A stretch of 64,000 bases of DNA. Origin: an uncultured Gammaproteobacteria bacterium. Lineage in GTDB: Bacteria > Pseudomonadota > Gammaproteobacteria > SZUA-229. The position numbers were made by a program, and so were the translations under genes. The stretch spans positions 2,718 to 66,717 of the forward strand of contig CAWDMF010000007.1 of assembly GCA_963803185.1 (NCBI GenBank). The letters are read 5' to 3'. Below the pieces are notes generated by a model. The model searched no databases. It was not told where the DNA came from and saw only the letters and a program-made list of their open reading frames with translations. Below, piece by piece: positions 9,688 through 58,838 of this stretch (positions within the stretch are counted from its first letter, which is position 1; the number at the start of each line of letters is the position of its first letter).

Positions 9688-10122
9688 ATGGCTAAAAAAG
9701 TCGATGCATACATCAAGCTGCAGGTGCCTGCAGCTGAAGCAAACCCAAGTCCACCGGTTGGTCCTGCATTAGGTCAACACGGTGTAAATATCATGGAATT
9801 CTGTAAAGCATTTAATGCCAAGACGCAGAAGATGGAAAAGGGTATGCCTATTCCTGTTGTTATTACTGTGTATAGCGACAAAAGCTTTACCTTTATCACC
9901 AAAACTCCACCTGCTTCTATTCTTTTAAAGAAAGCTGCTGGTGTCTCTAAGGGCAGTGGTGAGCCGCATATTAATAAAGTGGGTAAAGTTAACCGTGCGC
10001 AATTAGAAGAAATTGCAACCACTAAAATGCCGGATCTAACAGCGGCAGATATGGATGCTGCAGTTCGCACCATCGCTGGCAGTGCACGTAGTATGGGTCT
10101 CGAGACAGAGGGTGTGAAATAA
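9688..10122 (+). CDS. rplK: 50S ribosomal protein L11
   Basis: Sequence and operon position. Confidence 0.95.
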
Positions 10123-10814
10123 TGGCTAAGTTATCAAAACGCAATAAAGCAATTGCTGAAAAAATTGATAAAGAAAAAGTTTACTCATTGGAAGATGCGC
10201 TGGCTTTATTAAAAGAAGTCGCTTCAGCTAAATTCAACGAATCAGTTGACATCAGTGTAAACCTTGGTCTGGATCCTAAAAAGAGTGACCAGGTCGTTCG
10301 TGGTGCAACCGTATTACCAAATGGTAGTGGTAAAGAAGTTCGCGTGGCCGTTTTCACTGATGGCGATAATGCTAAAGCAGCAATAGAAGCCGGTGCTGAT
10401 ATCGTAGGCATGGATGATCTCGCGGCTGAGGTTAAAAAAGGCATCATGGACTTTGATGTTGTTATTGCTTCACCAGATGCAATGCGTGTCGTTGGTCAGC
10501 TGGGTCAGATCCTGGGTCCGCGCGGTTTAATGCCTAACCCTAAAGTGGGCACGGTAACGCCTGACGTTGCTGGCGCTGTTAAAAATGCTAAATCAGGTCA
10601 GGTTCGTTACCGTGTAGATAAGGCCGGTATCATTCATTGTTCTGTTGGTGTGGTTAAGTTTGACGTGCCGCAGTTAAAAGAAAATATTGAAAGTTTGATT
10701 GCTGATTTAATTAAAGCAAAACCAACTGCTGCAAAAGGTGTGTTTGTTAAGAAAATTTCTGTTTCAACGACAATGGGTCCTGGCCTGGTTGTTGATCAAT
10801 CAGTGTACGCATAA
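10122..10814 (+). CDS. rplA: 50S ribosomal protein L1
   Basis: Sequence and operon position. Confidence 0.95.
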
Positions 10815-11154
10815 GCGCGAACACGAAACTAAATTTTAAGTTGTAGCAGCGGACTTATTTGCTAATAGTGGGCTCCGCAATGTCTGTTTGACGCATACAG
10901 CCTATAAAGGTTGCGCCAAATGACTACAACTTTTAATGATTTGACAGCCGAGTTAGTGTTTATACACGCCGGTGTCGTCAGAGACCGTAGGTGTAACAAA
11001 AGCTGGAAGTGTTTTCAGTTGAAATTACTTAATTTCCTACGTAGATGGTGAATTTCGAAAGAAAGCACCTTTTTGGATTATGCATGTTGCATAGTCTATT
11101 TAAACTTGGCTGGGTTAATAATTATTAATCCTGGCTTTTAACAGGAGAGCTAAA

Positions 11155-11685
11155 GTGGCACTAAATCTTGAAAGCAAGAAAGCTATTGTCGCTGAAGTTT
11201 CTACAATTGCCGCCAGTGCGCTTTCAGCAGTTGCTGCTGAATATCGTGGCGTTACTGTAGGAGACATGACTGAGTTACGCGCTAAAGCACGTAATGAAGG
11301 CGTTTATCTTAAAGTTGCGAAAAACTCACTGGTAAAACGTGCAGTTGAAGGTACTGAATTCGAGTGTATGCAGGATGAACTGAAAGGGCCGCTGATTATG
11401 GCGTTCTCTCAGCAAGATCCAGGCGCAGCCGCTCGGCTTATTAAGGATTTTTCAAAAGGTAATGACAAACTAATAGCTAAAGTAATTGCAATTGGTGGTG
11501 AAGTTTTACCTGTCGAGCAACTGGAGGCACTTTCTAAATTGCCAACACGCGATCAAGCGATTGCAATGTTGATGGCGGTGATGAAAGCACCTATCGAAAA
11601 ATTCGTTCGTACTCTCAACGAGCCACACGCGAAACTGGTTCGCACTGTGGCTGCTGTACGTGATCAAAAGCAGGCAAGCGCGTAG
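11155..11685 (+). CDS. rplJ: 50S ribosomal protein L10 (GTG start)
   Basis: Sequence; preceded by long (340 bp) leader as expected for L10 autoregulation. Confidence 0.93.
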   Translation: MALNLESKKAIVAEVSTIAASALSAVAAEYRGVTVGDMTELRAKARNEGVYLKVAKNSLVKRAVEGTEFECMQDELKGPLIMAFSQQDPGAAARLIKDFSKGNDKLIAKVIAIGGEVLPVEQLEALSKLPTRDQAIAMLMAVMKAPIEKFVRTLNEPHAKLVRTVAAVRDQKQASA

Positions 11686-50000: not shown

Positions 50001-50030
50001 AGGCGCTTTTTTTAAAGCGCCTTTTTTGAT
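50001..50030 (+). terminator. rho-independent terminator after ssb
   Basis: AAAGGCGCTTTTTTTAAAGCGCCTTTTTTG. Confidence 0.75.
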
Positions 50031-50104
50031 GTTGCAGCTACCGTTTATATTGAAATATCACAGCAAATTATCCAACGGGCTGTTTACAGAAATACCTGGT
50101 TTGT

Positions 50105-50330
50105 TCAGCACATGCGTATACGATGTTCAGGACGAACAAGTGTCTCGGGAGGCAGGAAGCCGGGAGAGACAATCATGGTGGTAGAAACATCGGCATGACC
50201 GAGTAATTCCTGCACCGTCTTACCCCGTTAGAACACACTGCCAAAATACAATTTTATGTGTGCTTTCTAACGGGCGAATATCATAACCGGATTCCAGTAG
50301 TGGGTCGCAAAGGCTAATGGGGTCAAGTCG
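50105..50330 (-). pseudogene. decayed C-terminal remnant of a tyrosine recombinase
   Basis: Minus-strand frames read ..AFATH.. and ..GKTVQELLGHADVSTTMI.. (box II / LLGH..TT.IY motif) interrupted by stops; no intact ORF. Confidence 0.55.
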
Positions 50331-50419
50331 TACATATCACATCAATTGCTTTAACAGCCTGACTAATAAAAGTGTCAAATGTAAGACTTGACCACCATAC
50401 CTTTAACGGGACGGTCGTG

Positions 50420-50812
50420 TTACCAGATATAATCGATCACAGCCTGGATCTGTTGTGAATTTAGCTCCCAGTAATATTTATCAAACGCCTCTTTTTTCCT
50501 TTTACGATGTTGTAAATTAATCACTCCACCAGAACCTTCATCCAGGTCCTGTAGTAAATCAAAATATTGCGGTTCATTTAAAATAATCCTGCCTGACTTA
50601 TCAAAATAATAGATGCCGCCTTCAATACGCGGGCAATAATCAGGTTTTTTATTTTCAAGTAATAAATAGGCGTGAGCAATATGAATAGATGCATTTGAAA
50701 ATTCTTTAACAGACTCTTTACCTGAGCTGATACGTTTCCATTTTGCATAAGGTATGCGAGTAACATTACCAGCATCAGAAAAGTAAAAAATATAAACAGT
50801 GTGGCTAGTCAT
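50420..50812 (-). CDS. hypothetical protein immediately downstream of intI (start overlaps intI stop)
   Basis: 130-aa ORF, no recognisable motifs; ATG overlaps TGA of intI C-terminal fragment. Confidence 0.4.
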   Translation of the reverse strand: MTSHTVYIFYFSDAGNVTRIPYAKWKRISSGKESVKEFSNASIHIAHAYLLLENKKPDYCPRIEGGIYYFDKSGRIILNEPQYFDLLQDLDEGSGGVINLQHRKRKKEAFDKYYWELNSQQIQAVIDYIW

Positions 50813-52228
50813 TATTCACTAAAATCATCCAGCGGGCTTTTTATATTGTCATGGTTCTTTTGCATCACGTGTGTGTAGATTTCTGTGGTTTTAACATCGT
50901 TATGCCCTAACAATACCTGTAACACCCGAATATTTTCACCATTTTCTAATAAGTGTGTGGCAAAGCTATGTCTATTATTCCGAGCTCGGAATAATAGACA
51001 TAATGCCGAGTTCCGGATTATTCCGAGTAGCAAACCGAAACACGGTGAATCACGGGATCTTGAGTACATCGAACTCGGCATAATCAGAGGCTATTCAGAA
51101 AAGCCAGTAGCTGATCATCGGGCCGATAACGTGCCATGGGTATATTTGAAGGAGTTGTCGTCGCCAAGGCTTTTTCTTTAAGTTTTAGATCTGCGTGGAG
51201 ATAGATATAGGTTGTTTCTACAGACTCATGACCAAGCCAGAGCGCAATAACAGTGTGATCAAAGCCAATAAAAGAAGACAGCCTGATTATTCCGAGTAAT
51301 CAAGCAGTGGATACCCTCATAAACCATTGAATGTAGGTATATGTCAGACGCATGTCAACATGCTACTCGGAATAATCCGGAACTCGGCATTATGTCTAAG
51401 CGTATGTGGCGAAGTGCGTTTAATGATCCCGGCCTTAATTCTTGCACTTGATACCGCTTTTTGTAGTGCGCTTTTATTAAGATGATGTCGCATAACTTTC
51501 CCGGAGCGCGGATCAGTCGAGCGTACTTTAGAAGGAAACAAATATTGCCAGCCCAATGAAATGTTTGCTTTGCTGTATTTACGACTTAATGCTGTCGGCA
51601 AATAAACTTCACCATAACCATCGGCTAAATCTTTATTGTGCAGTTGCTTTACCACTTCAATTTGGTCACGAATGGGTTGATGCAAAGCATCAGGGAAAAT
51701 TGTAGTGCGATCTTTGTCGCCTTTGGCATTTCTGACATAAATTTGATTATTTTCAAAATCAATGTCATGAATGCGTAAACGAATAACTTCCAACGAGCGT
51801 AAACCAGAGCCATACATCAAGTAGGCTAATGTTTTTGCCGTGCCCGACATGCAGGTCAACAAGGACTTTACTTCATCTTTACTTAATACGGTAGGCAGTC
51901 TTTTCCCTTTAGTTGTACGCCTGGCGCGGATATCAAGATCCATTGGCATATCAAGTACTTTTTTATAAAGGAACATAATGGCATTAAATGCCTGGTTCTG
52001 AGTTGAAGCTGCGACGTTGCGATTAACCGCAAGATGGCTTAAGAACCGTTCAATTTCAAACTTACCCATCTCCCTGGGGTGTTTCTTTCCATTGAAACGA
52101 ATAAATTTTAAGATCCATTCAACATACGATTTTTCAGTATTGTATGCGTAATGATAAAACCGAAGTGTTTCGCGTACCTGATCCATTAATCTGGTCGCAG
52201 TGGGTCGAAACGTAACTGACTCATCCAT
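50812..52228 (-). pseudogene. intI: integron integrase gene interrupted by a ~425-bp MITE insertion
   Basis: N-terminal part 51393-52228 has IntI signature (LPTALSRKYSKANISLGWQYLFPS, additional domain) and ends ..SPHTLRH then runs into element; C-terminal part ([36 protein letters not shown]) resumes at 50970 in continuity. Confidence 0.85.
50971..51398. mobile_element. non-autonomous MITE-like element with 36-bp perfect terminal inverted repeats and subterminal ATTATTCCGAG repeats
   Basis: TIR AGACATAATGCCGAGTTCCGGATTATTCCGAGTAGC at 50996-51031 and reverse-complemented at 51363-51398; ATGTCT present at both junctions; no coding capacity. Confidence 0.75.
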
Positions 52229-52547
52229 GATAAAAATCCTTTTAATTGGTGTATTAGCAATAGCTTAACTTATGGCTACTTTTGCCCTTAAATATCGTAA
52301 TAGGGCGCCTTGGTTAAAAATTCTTACATTACAAGGCTACTTTACCCCTTAAATATCGCAATAGGTAGCCATAGTCATGTAATATGATAAATATTCTAAA
52401 TTTAAGCACTGTCTGAGGCGTCTTTTACCCCTTAAATATCGTAATAGGGCGCCTTATAGGGTGTATATTATAAAAAATAGGACGCCTTAGAAGGCGTCAT
52501 ATCGACAAGTTAGCTTCATAAAAAAATACATCTTAGGGAATTTTATA
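52229..52547. promoter_or_regulatory. attI-like region with three ~40-bp direct repeats and a GTTAGCT core next to first cassette
   Basis: GGCTACTTT(g/a)CCCTTAAATATCG(t/c)AATAGG repeated at 52272, 52333, 52412; palindrome GACGCCTTAGAAGGCGTC; lies between intI start and first cassette. Confidence 0.5.
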
Positions 52548-53222
52548 ATGGGAAAGTACTCTCTTAAAAAAGAATTAGATACAACAGAGTTAATTAAATG
52601 GGGTAGCGCTGTTATAGGTGGTCTAGCCATATTTTTAGTGATAACTCTAAAAGATTATGAATTAAAAAAATACGAAATTCTTGAAAAAGAGGCCGTATTA
52701 ATAGAGAAGGCTGGTAACCAATTATTAAAAGGGTTTGAGTTAATGAAAAATTACAAGCCCAGTATAGATGTCCACTACACCAATATGCTATCCGAAAAAG
52801 CTGATGAACTTCACATTAGAGTTTATATCAAATCTACATCAAAAAACGATATATATATTTTTCCTCCAAAGTTGACTTTAATTGATGTAGAGGGAAATGA
52901 GATTGATACCAATCTGTATAAAGCTGGTGATATAAAATCATTTAAAGGAAGTATTAGTCCAGAGTCATCGTTTCAAATAAATTATAAAATATTCTTGCTA
53001 AATATAGACACTGATAAAATTGGCAATGTACAGCTTGACTATGAGGTTCAAATAGATCAACTGGCTTCAGCACCTATAAAGATGTACTTTGAAGAATATG
53101 GATCGGAGAAGGAGAAAGAGCTCTTTAATGTGCTTAACTCTAAAAAGTATATTTATCGAGAAAGGGTATATGCTTATGCGGGTAATCCCATTTGGAATGA
53201 TTTTTGGGAAAATCCGAGATAA
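52548..53222 (+). CDS. integron cassette ORF 1, membrane-anchored hypothetical protein
   Basis: N-terminal TM helix, followed by attC. Confidence 0.6.
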   Translation: MGKYSLKKELDTTELIKWGSAVIGGLAIFLVITLKDYELKKYEILEKEAVLIEKAGNQLLKGFELMKNYKPSIDVHYTNMLSEKADELHIRVYIKSTSKNDIYIFPPKLTLIDVEGNEIDTNLYKAGDIKSFKGSISPESSFQINYKIFLLNIDTDKIGNVQLDYEVQIDQLASAPIKMYFEEYGSEKEKELFNVLNSKKYIYRERVYAYAGNPIWNDFWENPR

Positions 53223-53225
53223 CTA

Positions 53226-53286
53226 AGCTAACAAGTTAATTAACGGCGACCGCAAAAAACGCGTCGCGTTATTTTTAACGTTATGT
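53226..53286 (+). other. attC site 1
   Basis: Imperfect palindrome TAACAAG...GCGACCGC..GCGTCGCG...AACGTTATGT. Confidence 0.55.
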
Positions 53287-53293
53287 TTAAAAA

Positions 53294-53671
53294 ATGAATT
53301 GGAAAATAATGGAAATATTCAAAGGCATTGATCTTAATGATTCATTTGTTCTTTCATGGCATCAAGGAACAAACGAACTTACTTTCGAGCTCGAAACAAG
53401 CATTTGGCCAGAATCTACATACTATGAGAAACCTAAACCAAATGAACATACTTGTTATAAACGAGCTATTCTTTCATTTAAAAACATTAAAGAGCTAAAT
53501 GGTCTACTAGAACTAAATCAAGTAAAAGCCACAACTGATGCTTCTGGTGAAAAAGACTATGGAAACATAGATAACTTAGAACAAAATGATAAGGGTTTTC
53601 TAGTTGAAGGTGAATTTGGTTCAGTCTCAATTGCAGGCGGAGAAATAAGCTTTGAAATCAAAAAAACATAA
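53294..53671 (+). CDS. integron cassette ORF 2, hypothetical
   Basis: ORF bounded by attC sites. Confidence 0.55.
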   Translation: MNWKIMEIFKGIDLNDSFVLSWHQGTNELTFELETSIWPESTYYEKPKPNEHTCYKRAILSFKNIKELNGLLELNQVKATTDASGEKDYGNIDNLEQNDKGFLVEGEFGSVSIAGGEISFEIKKT

Positions 53672-53752
53672 CAAGGCAATCAAGTTCGCCCGTAAAAATC
53701 ACGGGCTTGGACGCGGCAAAAGACGCCGCGCCACTTATTTATAACGTTATGT
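53666..53752 (+). other. attC site 2 (family B)
   Basis: ACATAAC inverse core ... GTTATGT core, internal imperfect palindrome. Confidence 0.6.
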
Positions 53753-53779
53753 GTGAAAAAATAAAAATGAGAAAAATAA

Positions 53780-54040
53780 ATGAGTGATGAATTTGAAGTA
53801 AATATGTCACCACTATGCCAAACCATATCAAGTGGTGGCAAGACATTGCAGGTCGATATTTATGAAGATGGTAATGGCAAGTGGATTTTAGAGGTAGTGG
53901 ATGAATTTAATAACTCTACTGTATGGGACGATTCATTTGAAACAGATAAAGCTGCCTTAACAGAAGCTAAAAAAACAATATTATCTGAGGGTGCAAGTAT
54001 ATTAGTTGGGCCTGAGTCAGGTAAAGGCGAATGGAGTTAA
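53780..54040 (+). CDS. integron cassette ORF 3, hypothetical
   Basis: ORF bounded by attC sites. Confidence 0.55.
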   Translation: MSDEFEVNMSPLCQTISSGGKTLQVDIYEDGNGKWILEVVDEFNNSTVWDDSFETDKAALTEAKKTILSEGASILVGPESGKGEWS

Positions 54041-54050
54041 AAAATAAAAC

Positions 54051-54137
54051 ACATAACAAATCAATCAAGTTCGCCAGCAAAAGGCGCTGGCTTGGACTCC
54101 GCAAAAAACGCTCCGCCACTTATTTCGGACGTTATAT
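54051..54137 (+). other. attC site 3 (family B, similar to site 2)
   Basis: ACATAACAAATCAATCAAGTTCGCC...CCACTTATTTCGGACGTTATAT. Confidence 0.6.
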
Positions 54138-54154
54138 TTAAAAGATAAAAAAGC

Positions 54155-54412
54155 ATGAATGAAGAACAAATTCTAAATGTAGCAAAGGTACTCGAAGAGT
54201 GGAACCCACTTGGCGAGGCAGCTAATACTGTAGAGCAATTAGATGGTTACCGTTATGAGGCAATTGATATTATTTCAACAATCCAAATAGTTAATGGCCC
54301 AGGTAAAATAAAAGAATCAATAGAGCAGGTATTAACACAAGCATTCAATATTGAGCTTAATGAAGTTAAGCTTACTGAGGCAGAAAACAAAATAAAGAGC
54401 CTAATCAGTTAA
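54155..54412 (+). CDS. integron cassette ORF 4, hypothetical
   Basis: ORF bounded by attC sites. Confidence 0.55.
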   Translation: MNEEQILNVAKVLEEWNPLGEAANTVEQLDGYRYEAIDIISTIQIVNGPGKIKESIEQVLTQAFNIELNEVKLTEAENKIKSLIS

Positions 54413-54438
54413 TCATCATGCTCTTATTAAATAAAAAA

Positions 54439-54530
54439 TATAACAAGCCGCTCAACATTGACCGTTTTTACACGCCGCGCCGTTTCACTTTGCTCTGTGT
54501 AAAACCGTCAGGTTATGCTGAGCGTTATGC
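54439..54530 (+). other. attC site 4 (family A: CTCAACATTGACC..TTTACACGCCGC..)
   Basis: TAACAAG...GTTATGC; related to attC 7, 9, 12. Confidence 0.6.
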
Positions 54531-54574
54531 ACATAAAAAAACCCAGGTGTTAACAAAAATAAATTGGAGGCGTA

Positions 54575-54778
54575 ATGGATCCTGATAAAATGATGAGTGA
54601 CATTTCAAAAGAAATACTTACGGCATTAAAAGCAATGGCAAAAGCAAAAAACCCTGAAGAAAAACTGATACACAGTGAAATAGTAAAGAATCTATGTGAT
54701 TCACTTGGAGTTTTTCTTAGTTTAATAAGTGATATGGCTCTATATGATGATGACGATGATGAACCAATCCCATTTTAA
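54575..54778 (+). CDS. integron cassette ORF 5, small protein with acidic tail (DDDDDEPIPF)
   Basis: 67-aa ORF; near-identical second copy at 57200. Confidence 0.55.
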   Translation: MDPDKMMSDISKEILTALKAMAKAKNPEEKLIHSEIVKNLCDSLGVFLSLISDMALYDDDDDEPIPF

Positions 54779-54789
54779 AATCACGTTTG

Positions 54790-54875
54790 CATAACAAATA
54801 AATTAACGCAGATCGCCATAGACGCCGTTTGTTTTCAAATAGGCCGTGCAGCGGCTGGTTATTAAAACGTTATGT
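54790..54875 (+). other. attC site 5 (family C)
   Basis: CATAACAAATAAATTAACGCAGATCGCC...GGCTGGTTATTAAAACGTTATGT. Confidence 0.6.
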
Positions 54876-54896
54876 GTAAAAACCGAATCAAAAGAA

Positions 54897-55316
54897 ATGG
54901 ATATATTTAATAGTTTGGAGGTTGAAAAAGTATTTAATTCTTATCCGGATAATATCCGCATAAAAATGCTACTCCTTCGCCAGCTAGTTCTGGAAACAGC
55001 AGCGGAAATTGATAACGTTCAAAGCATTGAAGAAACTTTAAAATGGGGCGAGCCAAGCTATATAACAAAGCACGGGAGTACATTACGGATGGACTGGAAA
55101 AAATCAAATCCAGATCAATATGCAATGTACTTCCATTGTAAGACAAAACTTGTTGATACATTCAAAGAGCTTTATAAAGGCAAGTTCAAGTTTGAAGGCA
55201 ACAGAGCCATTGTATTTAATATAAAAGACAAAATACCAATTAATGAGCTAAAGCATTGTATTTCTTTATCTCTCACTTATCACAACATTAAACATCTACC
55301 AATGTTGGGTGTATGA
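54897..55316 (+). CDS. integron cassette ORF 6, possible DUF1801/YdhG-like protein
   Basis: Start moved to Met after attC; weak resemblance to DUF1801. Confidence 0.4.
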   Translation: MDIFNSLEVEKVFNSYPDNIRIKMLLLRQLVLETAAEIDNVQSIEETLKWGEPSYITKHGSTLRMDWKKSNPDQYAMYFHCKTKLVDTFKELYKGKFKFEGNRAIVFNIKDKIPINELKHCISLSLTYHNIKHLPMLGV

Positions 55317-55320
55317 TAAA

Positions 55321-55420
55321 AACACATAACAAGGCGCTGCACCGGAATTTTGCTTCGCTACGCTTCGCAAAATCCCGTGAGCTGGGTCGCTAGGGCCGTA
55401 AAAACAAGCAACTTGACATT
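55321..55420 (+). other. attC-like site 6 (lacks clear 3' GTTATG core)
   Basis: ACACATAACAAGG inverse core with internal palindrome but atypical 3' end. Confidence 0.35.
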
Positions 55421-55446
55421 CATCTAAATGTAAATACAATGTATTT

Positions 55447-55710
55447 ATGATTAAATTCGAATGGGATGCATCCAAAGCCACATCAAACAAAAGAAAACAT
55501 GGCGTTACTTTTGAAGAAGCACAGTCTGTGTTCTACGATGACTTTGCCATCCAGTTCTTTGATGATGAAAATTCAGAGCTAGAAGATAGGTTTCTTTTAC
55601 TAGGTCACAGTAACCAATCAAGGATATTACTTATCTGCCACTGTGAAAAAGAATCAGGCAATCTCATTCGAATCATATCAGCACGTAAAGCAACAGATAA
55701 AAGAGCGTAA
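55447..55710 (+). CDS. brnT: BrnT-family (DUF497) ribonuclease toxin
   Basis: FEWDxxKAxxNxxKHGVTFEEA motif. Confidence 0.8.
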   Translation: MIKFEWDASKATSNKRKHGVTFEEAQSVFYDDFAIQFFDDENSELEDRFLLLGHSNQSRILLICHCEKESGNLIRIISARKATDKRA

Positions 55711-55731
55711 GCTCTATAAAGGTGAAGCATA

Positions 55732-55957
55732 ATGAAAAAAGAATATGATTTATCTAAAATGAAATCACGTAAAAATCCATATGCATCAAAGCTCAAAAAG
55801 CCCGTAACAATGCGTCTTGGTGAGGATGTAATCAATTATTTTAAAGAGTATGGCTGAGGATTCAGGTGTACCTTATCAAAGCTTAATTAATTTATATCTT
55901 CGTGACTGTATTTCACAGCATCGTAAAGTAGATATATCTTGGAATCAAAAGCCCTAA
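55732..55957 (+). pseudogene. brnA: BrnA-family antitoxin with 1-bp frameshift in TTTTAAAG run (~55840)
   Basis: MKKEYDLSKMKSRKNPYASKLKKPVTMRLGEDVINYFK then frame switches to SMAEDSGVPYQSLINLYLRDC.. Confidence 0.7.
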
Positions 55958-56044
55958 CAATACGCTCAACATTGACCATTTTTACACGCCGCGCCACTTC
56001 GTTTTGCTCTGTGTAAAAACGTCAAGTTAGCTCCAACGTTTGGT
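55953..56044 (+). other. attC site 7 (family A)
   Basis: CTAACAATACGCTCAACATTGACCATTTTTACACGCCGCGCC...GTTTGGT. Confidence 0.5.
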
Positions 56045-56055
56045 GGAGGAAGACG

Positions 56056-56454
56056 ATGAAAACTCAAGTAACATTTCGATCAATGAATTTCCCTCCGTAC
56101 GATGGCGAAGAAGAGCAGATCAACCCAGGTCTCTGGGGCAAGAGGTTAGCTGAGTATTTTGTCGATAAACTGAAGCCACATGGCATCGAGACGGAAGAGA
56201 TCATTGCGGAAGATTGGGGATGGTACATTCCGATAAAGAACGAAGGATTCCGACTCGCTATTTGTTGTGGGCACCAAAATGGCGATGACGACGAGTTCTT
56301 GTGCTTCACCGACCCAGCAACACCAATAATCCGGAAATTCTTCAAGAAGATAAACGCGACACATGAGATCACGCGCGTCGTGGTCGCCATGGGTAATATA
56401 CTTTCGTCGGATCCAAGGATAACTGATATTGAGTGGACAGAAGTTGAGAAATGA
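56056..56454 (+). CDS. integron cassette ORF 8, hypothetical
   Basis: 132-aa ORF between attC sites. Confidence 0.55.
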   Translation: MKTQVTFRSMNFPPYDGEEEQINPGLWGKRLAEYFVDKLKPHGIETEEIIAEDWGWYIPIKNEGFRLAICCGHQNGDDDEFLCFTDPATPIIRKFFKKINATHEITRVVVAMGNILSSDPRITDIEWTEVEK

Positions 56455-56456
56455 CA

Positions 56457-56515
56457 CCGAACAAGGCTAATGCAGCCGACGCAAAAAGCCGCGCGGCTGA
56501 TTAGCAACGTTAGCA
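56457..56515 (+). other. attC site 8 (short)
   Basis: AACAAGG..GCCGCGCGGC..CAACGTTAGCA. Confidence 0.45.
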
Positions 56516-56568
56516 CCCATCAATACAAAAGTATGGCTATTTAGCCATATCAATGCTATATTTACCCT

Positions 56569-56859
56569 ATGAGTGAACAGGACTTCGAATGGGATGAGAC
56601 AAAAAACCAGGAAAATCAACGAAAACATGGCGTTACATTCTATGAAGCACAACATGCTTTCTTAGATACAAACCGTGTTATTGCTGAGGATTTGGAGCAT
56701 AGCCAGGCTGAAAAACGATATTATTGTTTCGGCTTAAATGAACAAGGCAATGGCATTCTTACTGTTCGGTTTACTTATCGGTCTGGTTGCATCCGTATAA
56801 TTGGTGCAGGTTATTGGCGCAAAGGTAAAAAGATCTATGAGCAAAACAATTCAATATAG
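56569..56859 (+). CDS. brnT: BrnT-family (DUF497) toxin, second copy
   Basis: FEWDETKNQENQRKHGVTFYEAQ. Confidence 0.8.
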   Translation: MSEQDFEWDETKNQENQRKHGVTFYEAQHAFLDTNRVIAEDLEHSQAEKRYYCFGLNEQGNGILTVRFTYRSGCIRIIGAGYWRKGKKIYEQNNSI

Positions 56860-57079
56860 TAACGAGCCAATCGGTGATTTAAAACTAATACCTGATTTTC
56901 TACCATCACCGGAAGAGCTCGCACTCAAACAACAAAATACTAAAGTCACAATATCTCTTAGTTCAGAGAGTGTTGCCTATTTTAAAGACACTGCAAAAAA
57001 ACATCACATGCAGTATCAAAAAATAATTCGGCAGTTACTCGATGAGTATGTGGCTCACCAAAAAAGTGCTAACAAGTAG
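56837..57079 (+). CDS. brnA: BrnA-family antitoxin, second copy (overlaps toxin 3' end)
   Basis: IPDFLPSPEEL..KVTISLSSESVAYFK, RHH/CopG-like; start at internal Met 56837. Confidence 0.7.
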   Translation: MSKTIQYSNEPIGDLKLIPDFLPSPEELALKQQNTKVTISLSSESVAYFKDTAKKHHMQYQKIIRQLLDEYVAHQKSANK

Positions 57080-57156
57080 CTCAACATTGACCATTTTATA
57101 CGCCGCTTCGTTTCACTTCGCAGCGTATAAAATGGCAAGTTAGCATGGCGTTATGC
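57076..57156 (+). other. attC site 9 (family A)
   Basis: CTCAACATTGACCATTTTATACGCCGCTTCGTTTCACT...GGCAAGTTAGCATGGCGTTATGC. Confidence 0.6.
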
Positions 57157-57199
57157 ACATAAAAACACCAGGTGTTAACAAAAATAAATTGGAGGAATA

Positions 57200-57373
57200 A
57201 TGGAACCTGATAAAATAATGAGTGACATTTCAAAAGAAATACTTACGGCATTAAAAGCAATGGCAAAAGCAAAAACCCCTGAAGAAAAACTGATACACAG
57301 TGAAATAGTAAAGAACCTATGTGATTCACTTGGAGTTTTTCTTGGTTTAATAAGTGATATGGCTCTATTATGA
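57200..57373 (+). pseudogene. duplicate of cassette ORF 5 with 1-bp insertion truncating the acidic tail
   Basis: MEPDKIMSDISKEILTALKAMAKAKTPEEKLIHSEIVKNLCDSLGVFLGLISDMALL*; TAT->TTAT shifts frame. Confidence 0.6.
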
Positions 57374-57415
57374 TGATGACGATGATGAATCAATCCCATT
57401 TTAAAATCACATTTG

Positions 57416-57501
57416 CATAACAAATAAATTAACGCAGGCCGCCATAGACGCCGTTTGTTTTCAAATAGGCCGTGCGGCGGCTGGTTATTAAAACGTTATG
57501 C
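57416..57501 (+). other. attC site 10 (family C, ~97% identical to attC 5)
   Basis: Direct alignment with 54790-54875. Confidence 0.6.
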
Positions 57502-57622
57502 CTATGAAGAGTTATGAGAGCTACTAAAGAGGACGTTCAACTCGGGTCAAGATGTTCTTGATTTGAACAAAAGATGGTGTTTATTCTTCCTGTACTTGTA
57601 CAATCAGATATTCAAAAAGGAT

Positions 57623-57838
57623 TTAATTGTACTCTCCAGGAAGATCGTTTTTTATAACAGTAACCTTGCCAAATTTCTTACCTGACATTCTCAATAATTC
57701 ATCACCTGAAAATTCAAAACCAAGCTTTAGTGCTATTCGCGCAACATCATCTGCAGTTGATGTTGCGAGCACCTCATTTTTAAGTGCAGGTTCAGACTGC
57801 ATTTTTATTAAAAATGCCTCGAGTTGATCTAATGCCAT
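57623..57838 (-). CDS. Nif11-domain-like small protein in an inverted-orientation cassette
   Basis: MALDQLEAFLIKMQSEPALKNEVLATSTADDVARIALKLGFEFSGDEL matches Nif11 N-terminal domain. Confidence 0.5.
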   Translation of the reverse strand: MALDQLEAFLIKMQSEPALKNEVLATSTADDVARIALKLGFEFSGDELLRMSGKKFGKVTVIKNDLPGEYN

Positions 57839-57979
57839 ATTTGAAATTCCTATTCTCGCTAGCTGTTCATATATTAAACAGAAAAACCATTACAGGTTTC
57901 TAGCAAATTCTACTATTCTTTCAAGATATAGGCAATGAGTGGAACTCCCGGAAGACTAGATATATTGTGCAAGAAAAGG

Positions 57980-58085
57980 CATAACAATGGCAATTGAGTG
58001 GGACTTGCCTTCCGCGGTGTTCGTTTGTGCTTGATAGCACAAGCCTCACCCCGCTCCGGCAAGCCCCTCATTGCGAGCGTTAGCA
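57980..58085 (+). other. attC site 11 (long)
   Basis: CATAACAATGG...GCGAGCGTTAGCA with internal palindromic arms. Confidence 0.45.
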
Positions 58086-58135
58086 TCTCAAAAACTACAT
58101 TGACAAGTGTAATCCAATGGATTATACTTGTAGTC

Positions 58136-58474
58136 ATGCAAGCCATAGTCGAACTACCTGAATTCCTGAGAAAATCTGATAAATTACTCAGCAATACAGA
58201 AAGACTAAGTATTATCAATTATTTAGCTGAGCATCCGGCGGCTGGCGATATCATGCAAGGCACTGGTGGTATTCGTAAATTAAGGTGGTCTGCACAAGGT
58301 AAAGGCAAAAGTGGCGGTGTACGTGTGATCTATTACCATCACAATGAATCAATGCCTTTATTTTTATTAACACTGTTTGGTAAAGGCGAAAAAGCCAACT
58401 TAACCAAATCTGAGAGTAACGATCTAGCCAAATTCACATCGTTATTAATTAAGAACTATGGAGGCCAAAAATGA
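58136..58474 (+). CDS. higB: RelE/ParE-superfamily toxin, HigB-like
   Basis: GGIRKLRWSAQGKGKSGGVRVIYY motif; start at internal Met 58136. Confidence 0.7.
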   Translation: MQAIVELPEFLRKSDKLLSNTERLSIINYLAEHPAAGDIMQGTGGIRKLRWSAQGKGKSGGVRVIYYHHNESMPLFLLTLFGKGEKANLTKSESNDLAKFTSLLIKNYGGQK

Positions 58475-58758
58475 GTAAAGCATTTGATAGTATCAAACAA
58501 GGCCTTGATGAAGCTTTAGAGTTTTCAAAAGGCAAAAAAGGAAAAGCAGTGGTGCATGAATTCACACCTTTAGATGTAAAAAACATTCGAGCCAAGGTAG
58601 GTATGTCACAAAATGAGTTCGCATCAGCATTCGGCATAAGTGTTAGCACACTCCGCCACTGGGAGCGCGGAGACAGAACACCACATGGCCCTGCATTAGT
58701 TTTATTAAATGTAGTCGCCAAAGAGCCCAAAGCAGTACTTAAAGCACTGAGTCACTAA
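58471..58758 (+). CDS. higA: XRE-family HTH antitoxin, HigA-like
   Basis: HTH (MSQNEFASAFGISVSTLRHWERGDRTP); 4-bp overlap with toxin. Confidence 0.7.
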   Translation: MSKAFDSIKQGLDEALEFSKGKKGKAVVHEFTPLDVKNIRAKVGMSQNEFASAFGISVSTLRHWERGDRTPHGPALVLLNVVAKEPKAVLKALSH

Positions 58759-58838
58759 GTGCTAACAAGTAGCTTAACTTTGACCATTTTATACGCCGCT
58801 TCGTTTCACTCCACTCTGTATAAAATGGCAAGTTAGCA
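58759..58838 (+). other. attC site 12 (family A), truncated by IS insertion
   Basis: Matches attC 9 up to GGCAAGTTAGCA then diverges into IS terminal repeat GGTTCCGTCGCAAA. Confidence 0.55.

Follow-up and report, generated by a model that had tools for sequence, protein, structure and literature searches.

An integron integrase gene interrupted at its box II Arg-His codons by a probable miniature recombinase-in-trio element

Introduction

RIT elements, named for their recombinase-in-trio architecture (PMC3414803, PMC2864759), are widespread. Their ends combine an inverted repeat with an overlapping palindrome—an arrangement that does not fit the usual core-and-arm layout (PMC3414803, Van Houdt 2012)—and their target specificity and movement have been listed as 'not tested' (PMC10214605). 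We analyzed a 64-kb stretch of DNA from an uncultured gammaproteobacterium (64,000 nucleotides, hereafter the window, to which all positions refer unless a locus is named), in which the integron integrase gene intI is interrupted by a 424-bp insert. The window is part of a 90,156-bp contig of a metagenome-assembled genome (MAG)-type record. Our analysis makes it probable that a RIT entered intI at the Arg-His codons of box II (HxLRH), through site-specific recombination of the tyrosine-recombinase type, and that the window copy is a 424-bp non-autonomous mini-RIT. A single internal deletion of 3,007 bp has removed ritA, ritB and most of ritC from it and spared every apparent cis-acting site.

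Compared with the archetypal RITs of Cupriavidus metallidurans CH34 and plasmid pHG1, the full-length parent found in a sister genome (locus L040; L numbers denote the loci compared here) shares the A/B/C size classes, the co-oriented and overlapping genes, inverted repeats of ~30-38 bp and a palindrome at one end, whereas the window copy has none of the three genes intact and spans 424 bp instead of ~3.4 kb. Insertional loss of intI is in itself ordinary (PMC8618304). Chromosomal integrons with an inactivated intI, e.g., in Xanthomonas, and the formation of clusters of attC sites lacking integron integrases (CALINs) resemble the locus in that a disabled intI lies beside an array expected to be static; the window differs by a single clean insertion with no other decay, possibly reversible, and by the kind of element involved, one whose targets are recombinase genes as a class. 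A gene split by an element whose conservative excision would restore the frame is also known from the skin element in sigK of Bacillus subtilis, the cyanobacterial nifD element and 'active lysogeny' prophages. In contrast to these systems, the insert in the window shows no evidence of developmental or regulated excision, and the recombinases are not encoded on it.

Results and discussion

A single insertion splits an otherwise intact integron integrase gene

The intI gene lies on the minus strand (52228→50812) and is broken directly after its ..SPHTLRH codons. In the list of open reading frames (ORFs), a 294-residue ORF (51344..52228, minus strand) reaches the intI codons ..IKRTSPHTLRH and then runs into the insert, and the intI frame picks up again within a second ORF (50812..51081, minus strand). 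An 8-bp direct repeat, TATGTCTA, occurs at 50967-50974 and 51391-51398, and any excision of 424 bp that keeps its register yields a single ORF of 993 nt and 330 codons. Because this repeat occurs at both junctions, the exact boundary of the insert is ambiguous and several 424-bp conventions are equivalent. The original prediction, made from the sequence alone, had described intI as split by a single small element bounded by inverted repeats, which the restored frame confirms; its size of 425 bp needs correcting, and the excision that it proposed (50971-51392) removes 422 bp and produces a frameshift. It had also anticipated a product of about 320 residues with the ALSRKY and additional-domain motifs—the motifs are there, in a protein of 330 residues.

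The identity of the gene as an integron integrase, likewise proposed beforehand, is well supported. The reconstructed protein scored 428.7 bits against the TIGR02249 integron integrase model (cutoff 265), covering profile positions 1-314 of 315, and neither fragment by itself was full length in this test. Alignment with VchIntIA (PDB 2A3V) extended over residues 15-326 (E=1.7e-86), with the IntI-specific segment LPTALSRKYSKANISLGWQYLFPS placed opposite LPTALKEKYPNAPYEFRWHYLFPS of VchIntIA. In IntI proteins, this additional segment (ALSRKY...WQYLFP) sits upstream of box II, and Xer recombinases are devoid of it. Moreover, contiguous, intact 330-residue orthologs share 93-94% protein identity with the reconstructed IntI; their DNA aligns without gaps over all 993 nt at 90.4% nucleotide identity, and the empty target site in loci L041-L045 reads CATACGCTT(A/C)GACA(T/C)AGCTTTGC. 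The ratio of nonsynonymous to synonymous substitution rates (dN/dS) was 0.07-0.09 against those orthologs and 0.07-0.11 across all relatives compared, and the reconstructed gene contains zero stops and zero frameshifts. The gap-free ortholog alignment and the low dN/dS together indicate that the insertion is the sole lesion of the window intI, so that the earlier view of inactivation by insertion rather than by decay holds.

According to the 2A3V alignment, the 5' part of the gene retains the catalytic Arg-I, the Lys and the HxxR of box II and lacks His-III and the tyrosine nucleophile. The contiguous R-K-H-R-H-Y catalytic set is therefore broken up, with His-III and Tyr lying 424 bp off, beyond a stop codon. 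Since the 294-residue fragment is devoid of His-III and the nucleophile, the product of this interrupted intI cannot catalyze recombination as encoded; an exact-sequence look-up of the truncated ORF retrieved no entry on record. The cassette array—first described as downstream, but in fact situated upstream of intI in a divergent arrangement—would then be static with respect to its own integrase, unless RitABC acting in trans removes the insert or another IntI acts on the array.

The insert is related to both ends of a full-length recombinase-in-trio element

The closest parent was reached through an IntI homolog (P0100), a 293-residue truncated protein with 95% identity encoded on a 249-kb contig of the sister genome. 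At this locus (L040), the orthologous intI is broken at the same codon as in the window by a full-length RIT, whose tyrosine-recombinase genes ritA (413 residues), ritB (305 residues) and ritC (334 residues) overlap by 4 and 1 nt. In blastn comparisons, window 50995-51262 matched L040 10696-10963 at 99.3% identity and window 51263-51394 matched L040 13971-14102 at 97.7%. These matches to both RIT ends identify the insert as an L040-type RIT minus 3,007 bp. The deletion, which lies between two inner motif copies of the element (see below), took all of ritA and ritB together with ritC codons 1 to ~274, and the ritC tail was the only rit sequence that tblastn with the L040 proteins recovered in the window. 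The original prediction had called the insert non-coding, and indeed it harbors no intact gene, but it does hold the last codons of ritC with their stop. This remnant is 98.4% identical to L040 RitC residues 275-335 (E=5.6e-34, tblastn) and, judged by sequence only, keeps ~35 residues past the tyrosine that are conserved across RitC proteins. An extra, RitC-specific C-terminal helix after the catalytic Tyr has reportedly been described by Smyshlyaev in 2021.

The L040 RitA, RitB and RitC proteins share 42%, 54% and 56% identity, over their full length, with the published pHG1 trio (PMC2864759), and the RitC tail of the window shares 63% identity over 57 residues with its pHG1 counterpart, linking both loci to the archetypal RIT proteins. 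NCBIfam holds no RIT-specific model, and RitA, RitB and RitC scored there only as sub-threshold Xer-like proteins. Neither Pfam nor NCBIfam gave anything specific for the 71-residue internal peptide of the insert. An Rfam scan of 48-60 kb returned nothing meaningful—only a chance miRNA match on the palindrome (E=0.79)—and thus no Rfam support for a group II intron or other structured RNA.

Three adjacent, co-oriented and overlapping tyrosine-recombinase genes are present in the L040 parent and absent from the window, while the ends characteristic of RITs, i.e., inverted repeats of ~28-38 bp with an overlapping palindrome at one end, are found in the window in a form that matches both the published description (PMC3414803) and nine other RIT copies. 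The terminal inverted repeats have 38-nt arms with 100% complementarity, and exactly two occurrences of the 36-nt terminal repeat were counted in the window, where 100 shuffles gave an expectation of 0. The 22-bp palindrome and its flanking spacers together form a perfect 36-bp palindrome (50967-51002), and a comparable palindromic end is present at one end of the RITs at L002, L005, L007, L013, L024, L031 and L048. The motif ATWATKCCGAG appears in eight copies within the insert, all of them intact (Table 1). On these grounds, the insert is best classified as a derivative of a RIT and not as an autonomous member. The best sigma-70-like site of the region, TTGACA-17-TACATT (51358→51330, minus strand; a consensus match only), lies in the ritA leader that was kept and is oriented through the insert towards the 3' part of intI and the adjoining orf130.

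Table 1. Features of the interrupted intI locus (window positions; a slash marks a junction).
Feature	Position	Strand	Description and evidence
5' part of intI	51392..52228	-	codons 1 to ~279, ends ..SPHTLRH; ORF list, reconstruction, TIGR02249, 2A3V alignment
Mini-RIT insertion	50975..51398 (one convention of several)	-	424 bp; excision restores ORF, empty sites in L041-L045, matches to L040 RIT ends
Terminal inverted repeat, ritA side	51361..51398	-	motifs 51366-51376 and 51383-51393; adjoins HTLRH codons directly, catacgcttagac/AT
ritA leader region	51263..51360	-	inner motif copy 51286-51296; blastn to L040 13971-14102, motif map
Internal deletion junction	51262..51263	.	3,007 bp of parent gone (L040 10964-13970); blastn vs L040, junction context
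ritC remnant	51084..51266	-	last 60 codons and stop; stop codon overlaps inner inverted motif copy 51074-51084
Terminal inverted repeat, ritC side	50995..51032	+	motifs ATAATGCCGAG (51000-51010) and ATTATTCCGAG (51017-51027); repeat search, motif map
22-bp palindrome ATTATTCCGAG/CTCGGAATAAT	50974..50995	.	two inverted motif copies, end adjoining 3' part of intI; repeat search
3' part of intI	50812..50973	-	begins (H); has His-III and catalytic Tyr; ORF list, reconstruction, 2A3V alignment
attI region and cassette array	52229..58838	+	repeat families D4, D5, D8, D12; fold-based attC scan

Related elements share a target in recombinase genes

RIT ends were collected from a genome scan (one genome per species) and a metagenome scan of 31 loci with the pattern ATAATGCCGAG-N6-ATTATTCCGAG, an exact 22-nt inverted-repeat pattern. 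The genome scan returned inverted hit pairs 3.4-3.6 kb apart, each enclosing three consecutive tyrosine-recombinase genes; in viral contigs, the pattern gave 0 matches. Plain ends, i.e., those devoid of the palindrome, adjoin the sequence ..CAY NNN YTN CGN C/AT, and 29 out of 34 unique flanks of this class translate into H-x-[LF]-[RK]-H, a motif that stops precisely at the junction. Among the five exceptions, one has the mutated form QDLRH, two represent palindromic ends that are cut off or variant, and the remaining two (L007/L008 and L016) are genuine targets outside recombinase genes. Palindromic ends consist of a ~20-22 bp core (TTATTCCGAG·CTCGGAATAA) with a 5-nt spacer inside and the reverse complement of that spacer outside, followed by the target; their outer flanks encode H-[SA]-[FY]-A-T-[HR]-L-L-E in 11 of 12 unique cases. 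The interrupted genes are diverse and include RitB-like genes, several Xer/IntI-like families, phage-type integrases with VHDLKH and the window intI, where the target stretch of ~30 bp reads CCACATACGCTTAGACATAGCTTTGCCACA.

Two annotated plasmids, whose inverted repeats have diverged from the scanned pattern, display the same arrangement. In Mesorhizobium pMspAR02c, a RIT sits within the ritB of another RIT at PRLHDLR/H, and the gene resumes with HSFAVHRLL.. past the palindrome; in pHG1, the PHG134-136 trio lies within a ritC at ITPHTLRH/. The recombinase 'maze' published for pHG1 (L050, NC_005241, 8232-17781) can be described in these terms, as a RIT (PHG134-136) at the HTLRH codons of another RIT's ritC, flanked on each side by a ~3.1-kb exact inverted duplication of ritA1-ritB1-ritC1 (N-terminal part).

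We also considered whether the HxLRH flanks might belong to the element itself. This possibility was discarded: the flanks run for hundreds of codons into unrelated recombinase families, and whole target genes can be rebuilt in the window and at L005, L024, L031 and L048. The position of the insert within intI is thus not arbitrary but the conserved target of this RIT subfamily. As far as the junction sequences tell, the box II Arg-His codons of tyrosine-recombinase genes serve the subfamily as a specific insertion site. The literature searched holds no report of recombinase-gene targeting or of miniature RIT derivatives; the main RIT survey (Ricker 2013) lay outside that search.

Motif architecture suggests three recombination cores

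The terminal motifs were mapped in 11 other RIT copies (nine full-length, plus the mini-RIT L034) from contigs of Alpha- and Gammaproteobacteria and Acidobacteria and from metagenome contigs without assignment. At each end, the motif occurs twice in direct orientation at the terminus and once more, inverted, 80-100 bp towards the interior; at the threshold used, L019 and L032 are short of one inner copy, and RITs with a palindromic end have one or two extra copies there. Locus L034 represents a second, independent mini-RIT of 530 bp that kept the same parts, including the RitC tail. The copies also fall into classes according to their ends and orientation. Loci L005 and L020 contain one RIT in one target in opposite orientations; L001, L019, L025, L032, L034 and L040 have two plain ends, each of these loci with two inward-facing N-terminal halves of the target; pHG1 likewise has two plain ends; and L013 has two palindromic ends. 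The inner spacer mostly mirrors the target duplication and is 1-2 nt off in L012, L013, L031 and L051.

These regularities led us to a model of the sites, which we give as a proposal. In gene sense, the window locus may be read as ..CACATACGCT-TAGACA-TAATGCCGAG..(interior)..CTCGGCATTA-TGTCTA-TTATTCCGAG/CTCGGAATAA-TAGACA-TAGCTTTGCC.., in which each putative recombination core would comprise ~10-6-10 nt, with two inverted arms (TAATGCCGAG or TTATTCCGAG) around a 6-bp overlap that is TAGACA in gene sense. Core L would be formed by the intI-left (target) arm, the overlap and an element arm; core M by an element arm, the overlap and a palindrome arm; and core R by a palindrome arm, the overlap and the intI-right (target) arm. 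A circular or equivalent intermediate with a palindromic junction would recombine with the target by crossover in the 6-bp overlap; after integration, the N-terminal side of the target would be joined to the element by a plain junction and the C-terminal side by a palindromic one. Recombination between L and M would invert the interior, whereas the same exchange between two copies would generate plain/plain and palindrome/palindrome elements, like those observed, as reciprocal products; the flanks of the pHG1 RIT, an exact inverted duplication on both sides, are also consistent with an L x M exchange. Finally, recombination between L and R would excise the element and restore intI exactly (CTT AGA CAT AGC), with CTTAGACATAGC as the restored junction.

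The model accounts for the constant polarity of the insertions, in which plain ends invariably face the N-terminal half of the target and palindromic ends the C-terminal half, for the occurrence of either orientation of the interior (as in L005/L020), and for the mirroring of the duplication by the inner spacer, with mismatches of 1-2 nt allowed as carry-over from a donor site. Given the lack of resemblance between target arms and element arms, it may be, speculatively, that one of the three RIT recombinases reads the target. Carry-over from a donor site has a parallel in Tn554 and the SE elements, which leave donor-derived 6-bp footprints (PMC10214605) that the spacer mismatches listed above resemble. 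RITs share with Tn554 and SE/GInt elements a site-specific mode, several recombinases and a short flank-derived spacer carried between sites. They differ from them in lacking a counterpart of TnpC, Srap or Tfp, in their long perfect inverted repeats and palindrome, and in their target, a coding motif of recombinase genes as opposed to att554 or SE sites.

A sister copy and the weighing of alternative explanations

The sister genome carries, on the same 249-kb contig, the full-length RIT with its intact RitABC trio and one mini copy. The latter (L051, at the ssb locus) is the same mini-RIT: it occupies the same intI codon and shares the deletion junction exactly. Its interior, however, has the opposite orientation to that of the window copy, and the two spacers do not match each other (AGAC next to the plain end, CGTC/ACGTC next to the palindromic end). 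The window and L051 elements differ at 2 of ~400 positions (0.5%), against 33 differences in 843 positions between the 5' parts of the two intI genes (dS 0.14, dN/dS 0.11). From this contrast, the element is younger than the divergence of the intI alleles, and the dN/dS of 0.11 indicates that these alleles diverged mostly while still under selection; the difference fits recent movement or exchange of the element rather than one ancient insertion. Precise excision by RitABC supplied in trans is mechanistically plausible, since the L and R junction sites are intact and share the overlap. The original prediction of a likely frozen array did not consider this possibility, for which all three proposed cores of the window copy are intact.

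Two further features of the sister loci were recorded. At L051, a 212-bp miniature inverted-repeat transposable element (MITE) with the terminal repeat CACTGCTGTCCCGTTAA and a ~9-bp target duplication (AACCTATAT) lies inside the ritC remnant (11039-11250) and is absent from the window copy. At L040, the intI 5' part joined to the full-length RIT (9868-10733) has two 1-nt insertions relative to the window, at gene positions 22 and 166; by this evidence the L040 copy of intI is decaying and the window copy is not.

The most serious alternative holds that a full-length RIT inserted and lost its genes in place, leaving a dead fossil that is no longer a substrate, in an intI that is permanently lost and will decay. 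Inactive integrons and CALINs are recognized to arise through loss of intI by insertion (PMC8618304), no rit gene remains in the window, and the sister intI copies are visibly decaying—with two frameshifts in L040, and a truncation and a 50-bp insertion in L051. Yet the window copy has retained perfect 38-nt inverted repeats at both ends and all eight motif copies in intact form, and the split gene has no further lesion; moreover, the opposite interior orientation of L051 suggests that the derivative was acted on after the deletion, and a divergence of 0.5% in the element beside a flank dS of 0.14 is hard to reconcile with a long-dead remnant. We therefore give the fossil a minority chance, one that should be kept in mind.

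The original prediction had classified the insert as a MITE, which in the classical sense would be a non-autonomous derivative of an insertion sequence with a DDE transposase, moved by cut-and-paste with an 8-bp target-site duplication at a position of no meaning. The outward signs are all present: a size below ~600 bp (424 bp), perfect 38-nt terminal inverted repeats, the 8-bp direct repeat and no intact ORF with homologs. However, its interior is 98-99% identical to both ends of a tyrosine-recombinase trio element, ritC remnant included, and thus not of DDE-transposase origin; the extra 22-bp palindrome with inverted target bases at one end is a structure that DDE transposition does not make; and the same codon is targeted in dozens of unrelated recombinase genes. 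A classical MITE is accordingly very improbable, and the insert is to be seen instead as a RIT internal-deletion derivative, present in one copy in the window. It does resemble bacterial MITEs in its small size, inverted-repeat bounds, absence of genes, dependence on an enzyme in trans and association with integrons, and differs from them by its tyrosine-recombinase origin, its asymmetric ends and a fixed codon inside intI rather than a place flanking the integron. In the latter setting, pairs of MITEs are said to flank and mobilize class 1 integrons, a finding attributed to Gillings (2009).

That the contig wrongly joins intI halves to repeat-derived sequence is scarcely credible: although repeats in MAG-type records are prone to misassembly, both junctions fit the rule of >40 independent junctions from other assemblies, the same intI–RIT junction sequence occurs twice in an assembly of independent origin (ERZ25039514), and excision restores the frame to the nucleotide.

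With these alternatives set out, the insertion of a RIT by site-specific recombination, followed by internal deletion to a mini-RIT, remains the preferred explanation, and several observations weigh against it or narrow its reach. The loci were chosen by an exact 22-nt inverted-repeat pattern, so that the target rule is shown for this subfamily only, and even there two sampled insertions (L007/L008 and L016) lie outside recombinase genes. Other RITs interrupt radC, the tnpA of IS66 and the tnpA of Tn6049 (PMC2864759, PMC3414803), and a RIT in Agrobacterium (L049) sits in an ArdC-like gene; with such targets on record, the rule belongs to the subfamily and not to all RITs. The flank consensus that defines the target arms bears no resemblance to the motifs of the element arms, which leaves target recognition unexplained. 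The core-site model rests on sequence anatomy, and no laboratory has ever reproduced RIT transposition (PMC10214605). The window contains no RIT recombinase gene, and trans-mobilization in this strain is hypothetical. Finally, the mismatched spacers and truncated intI of L051 point to a more tangled history than one insertion.

The Agrobacterium element was also inspected for its own site. Near the palindromic end (pQ15_94_4, locus positions 2140-2240), this RIT has a different terminal motif, ATAATGCCGAT, and adjoins the codons H-W-V-G-A-T-H-R-L-N-R of the ArdC-like zincin gene (HExxH region). A different RIT subfamily may thus target a different conserved coding motif.

The integron array and neighboring sequences

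Adjacent to intI, and divergent from it, we found an attI region and an attC cassette array. A putative attI crossover box, AAGTTAGC, lies at ~52507-52514, and at least eight imperfect palindromes of attC-like form, each with a terminal GTTA(G/T), are distributed over 53227-58838; these sites come from a looser, fold-based scan with no dedicated attC model and are approximate, and stricter scan settings found none. A 41-nt unit (..CTTTWCCCCTTAAATATCGYAATAGG..) is present in three direct copies at 52274-52458, in the interval from the start of intI to the putative attI box; two of the copies are 78% and 83% identical to the third, the reference copy, and the sister genome is devoid of 117 bp of this region. 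The units may be accessory IntI-binding repeats or a tandem expansion. Within the array, a segment of ~340 bp is duplicated with 96% identity, 2.6 kb apart (54536-54874 and 57161-57500), and each copy includes an attC-like site (54790-54874 and 57416-57500).

On the other side of intI, orf130 (50420-50812, minus strand) encodes 130 residues. Its ATG shares bases with the stop codon of intI (TAATG), an arrangement suggesting that translation of orf130 is coupled to that of intI. The protein has no Pfam or NCBIfam match and belongs to a 31-member cluster at 90% identity in metagenomes. Between ssb and orf130, the window further contains a decayed 3' fragment of a second integron-integrase-like gene (~50030-50345, minus strand). 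It reads ..FATHLLESGYDIR.. and, after a frameshift, ..TVQELLGHADVSTTMI(50 bp)YTHVLNKPGISVNSPLDNLL followed by a stop codon, and is interrupted as well by a 52-bp hairpin (50223-50274). At L051, the C-terminus matching this fragment forms the end of the mini-RIT-bearing intI, and the counterpart of window 50215-50878 is absent there.

The 50-bp insertion within this fragment, GTCTCTCCCGRCTTCCTGYCTCMCGAGACACTTGTTCGTCCTGAACATCG, has a GTCTC..GAGAC stem and lies exactly between the Ile and Tyr codons of TTxI/YTHV, at the catalytic tyrosine. A search for small insertions with blastn-short located it at window 50121-50170 (minus strand), L046 1949-1998, L047 1445-1494 and L051 10677-10726, in two intI alleles: HADVSTTMI in the window remnant and HNDVKTTEI in the orthologs. 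A target duplication is not evident, and the length of the insertion is not divisible by three.

Conclusions

The locus and its relatives provide a precise target rule for this RIT subfamily, namely insertion at the box II Arg-His codons of tyrosine-recombinase genes, and a map of the likely core and accessory sites. Together with the matching intact RitABC of the sister genome, the natural 424-bp minimal substrate makes an assay of excision, inversion and integration feasible. At the speculative end, and as a proposal that we rate as improbable in its full form, the RIT subfamily could target recombinase genes specifically, recognizing the DNA that specifies the box II catalytic Arg-His of other tyrosine recombinases (integron, phage-type, Xer-like and RIT) and inserting there conservatively; the mini-RIT would then be a reversible switch, flipped or exactly excised by RitABC in trans to re-enable cassette shuffling, with mobile elements silencing and releasing each other's recombinases. 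For integron biology, the finding points to a distinct and in principle reversible route to switching off intI, and places the integron integrases in a wider set of recombinase genes struck by one class of mobile element.

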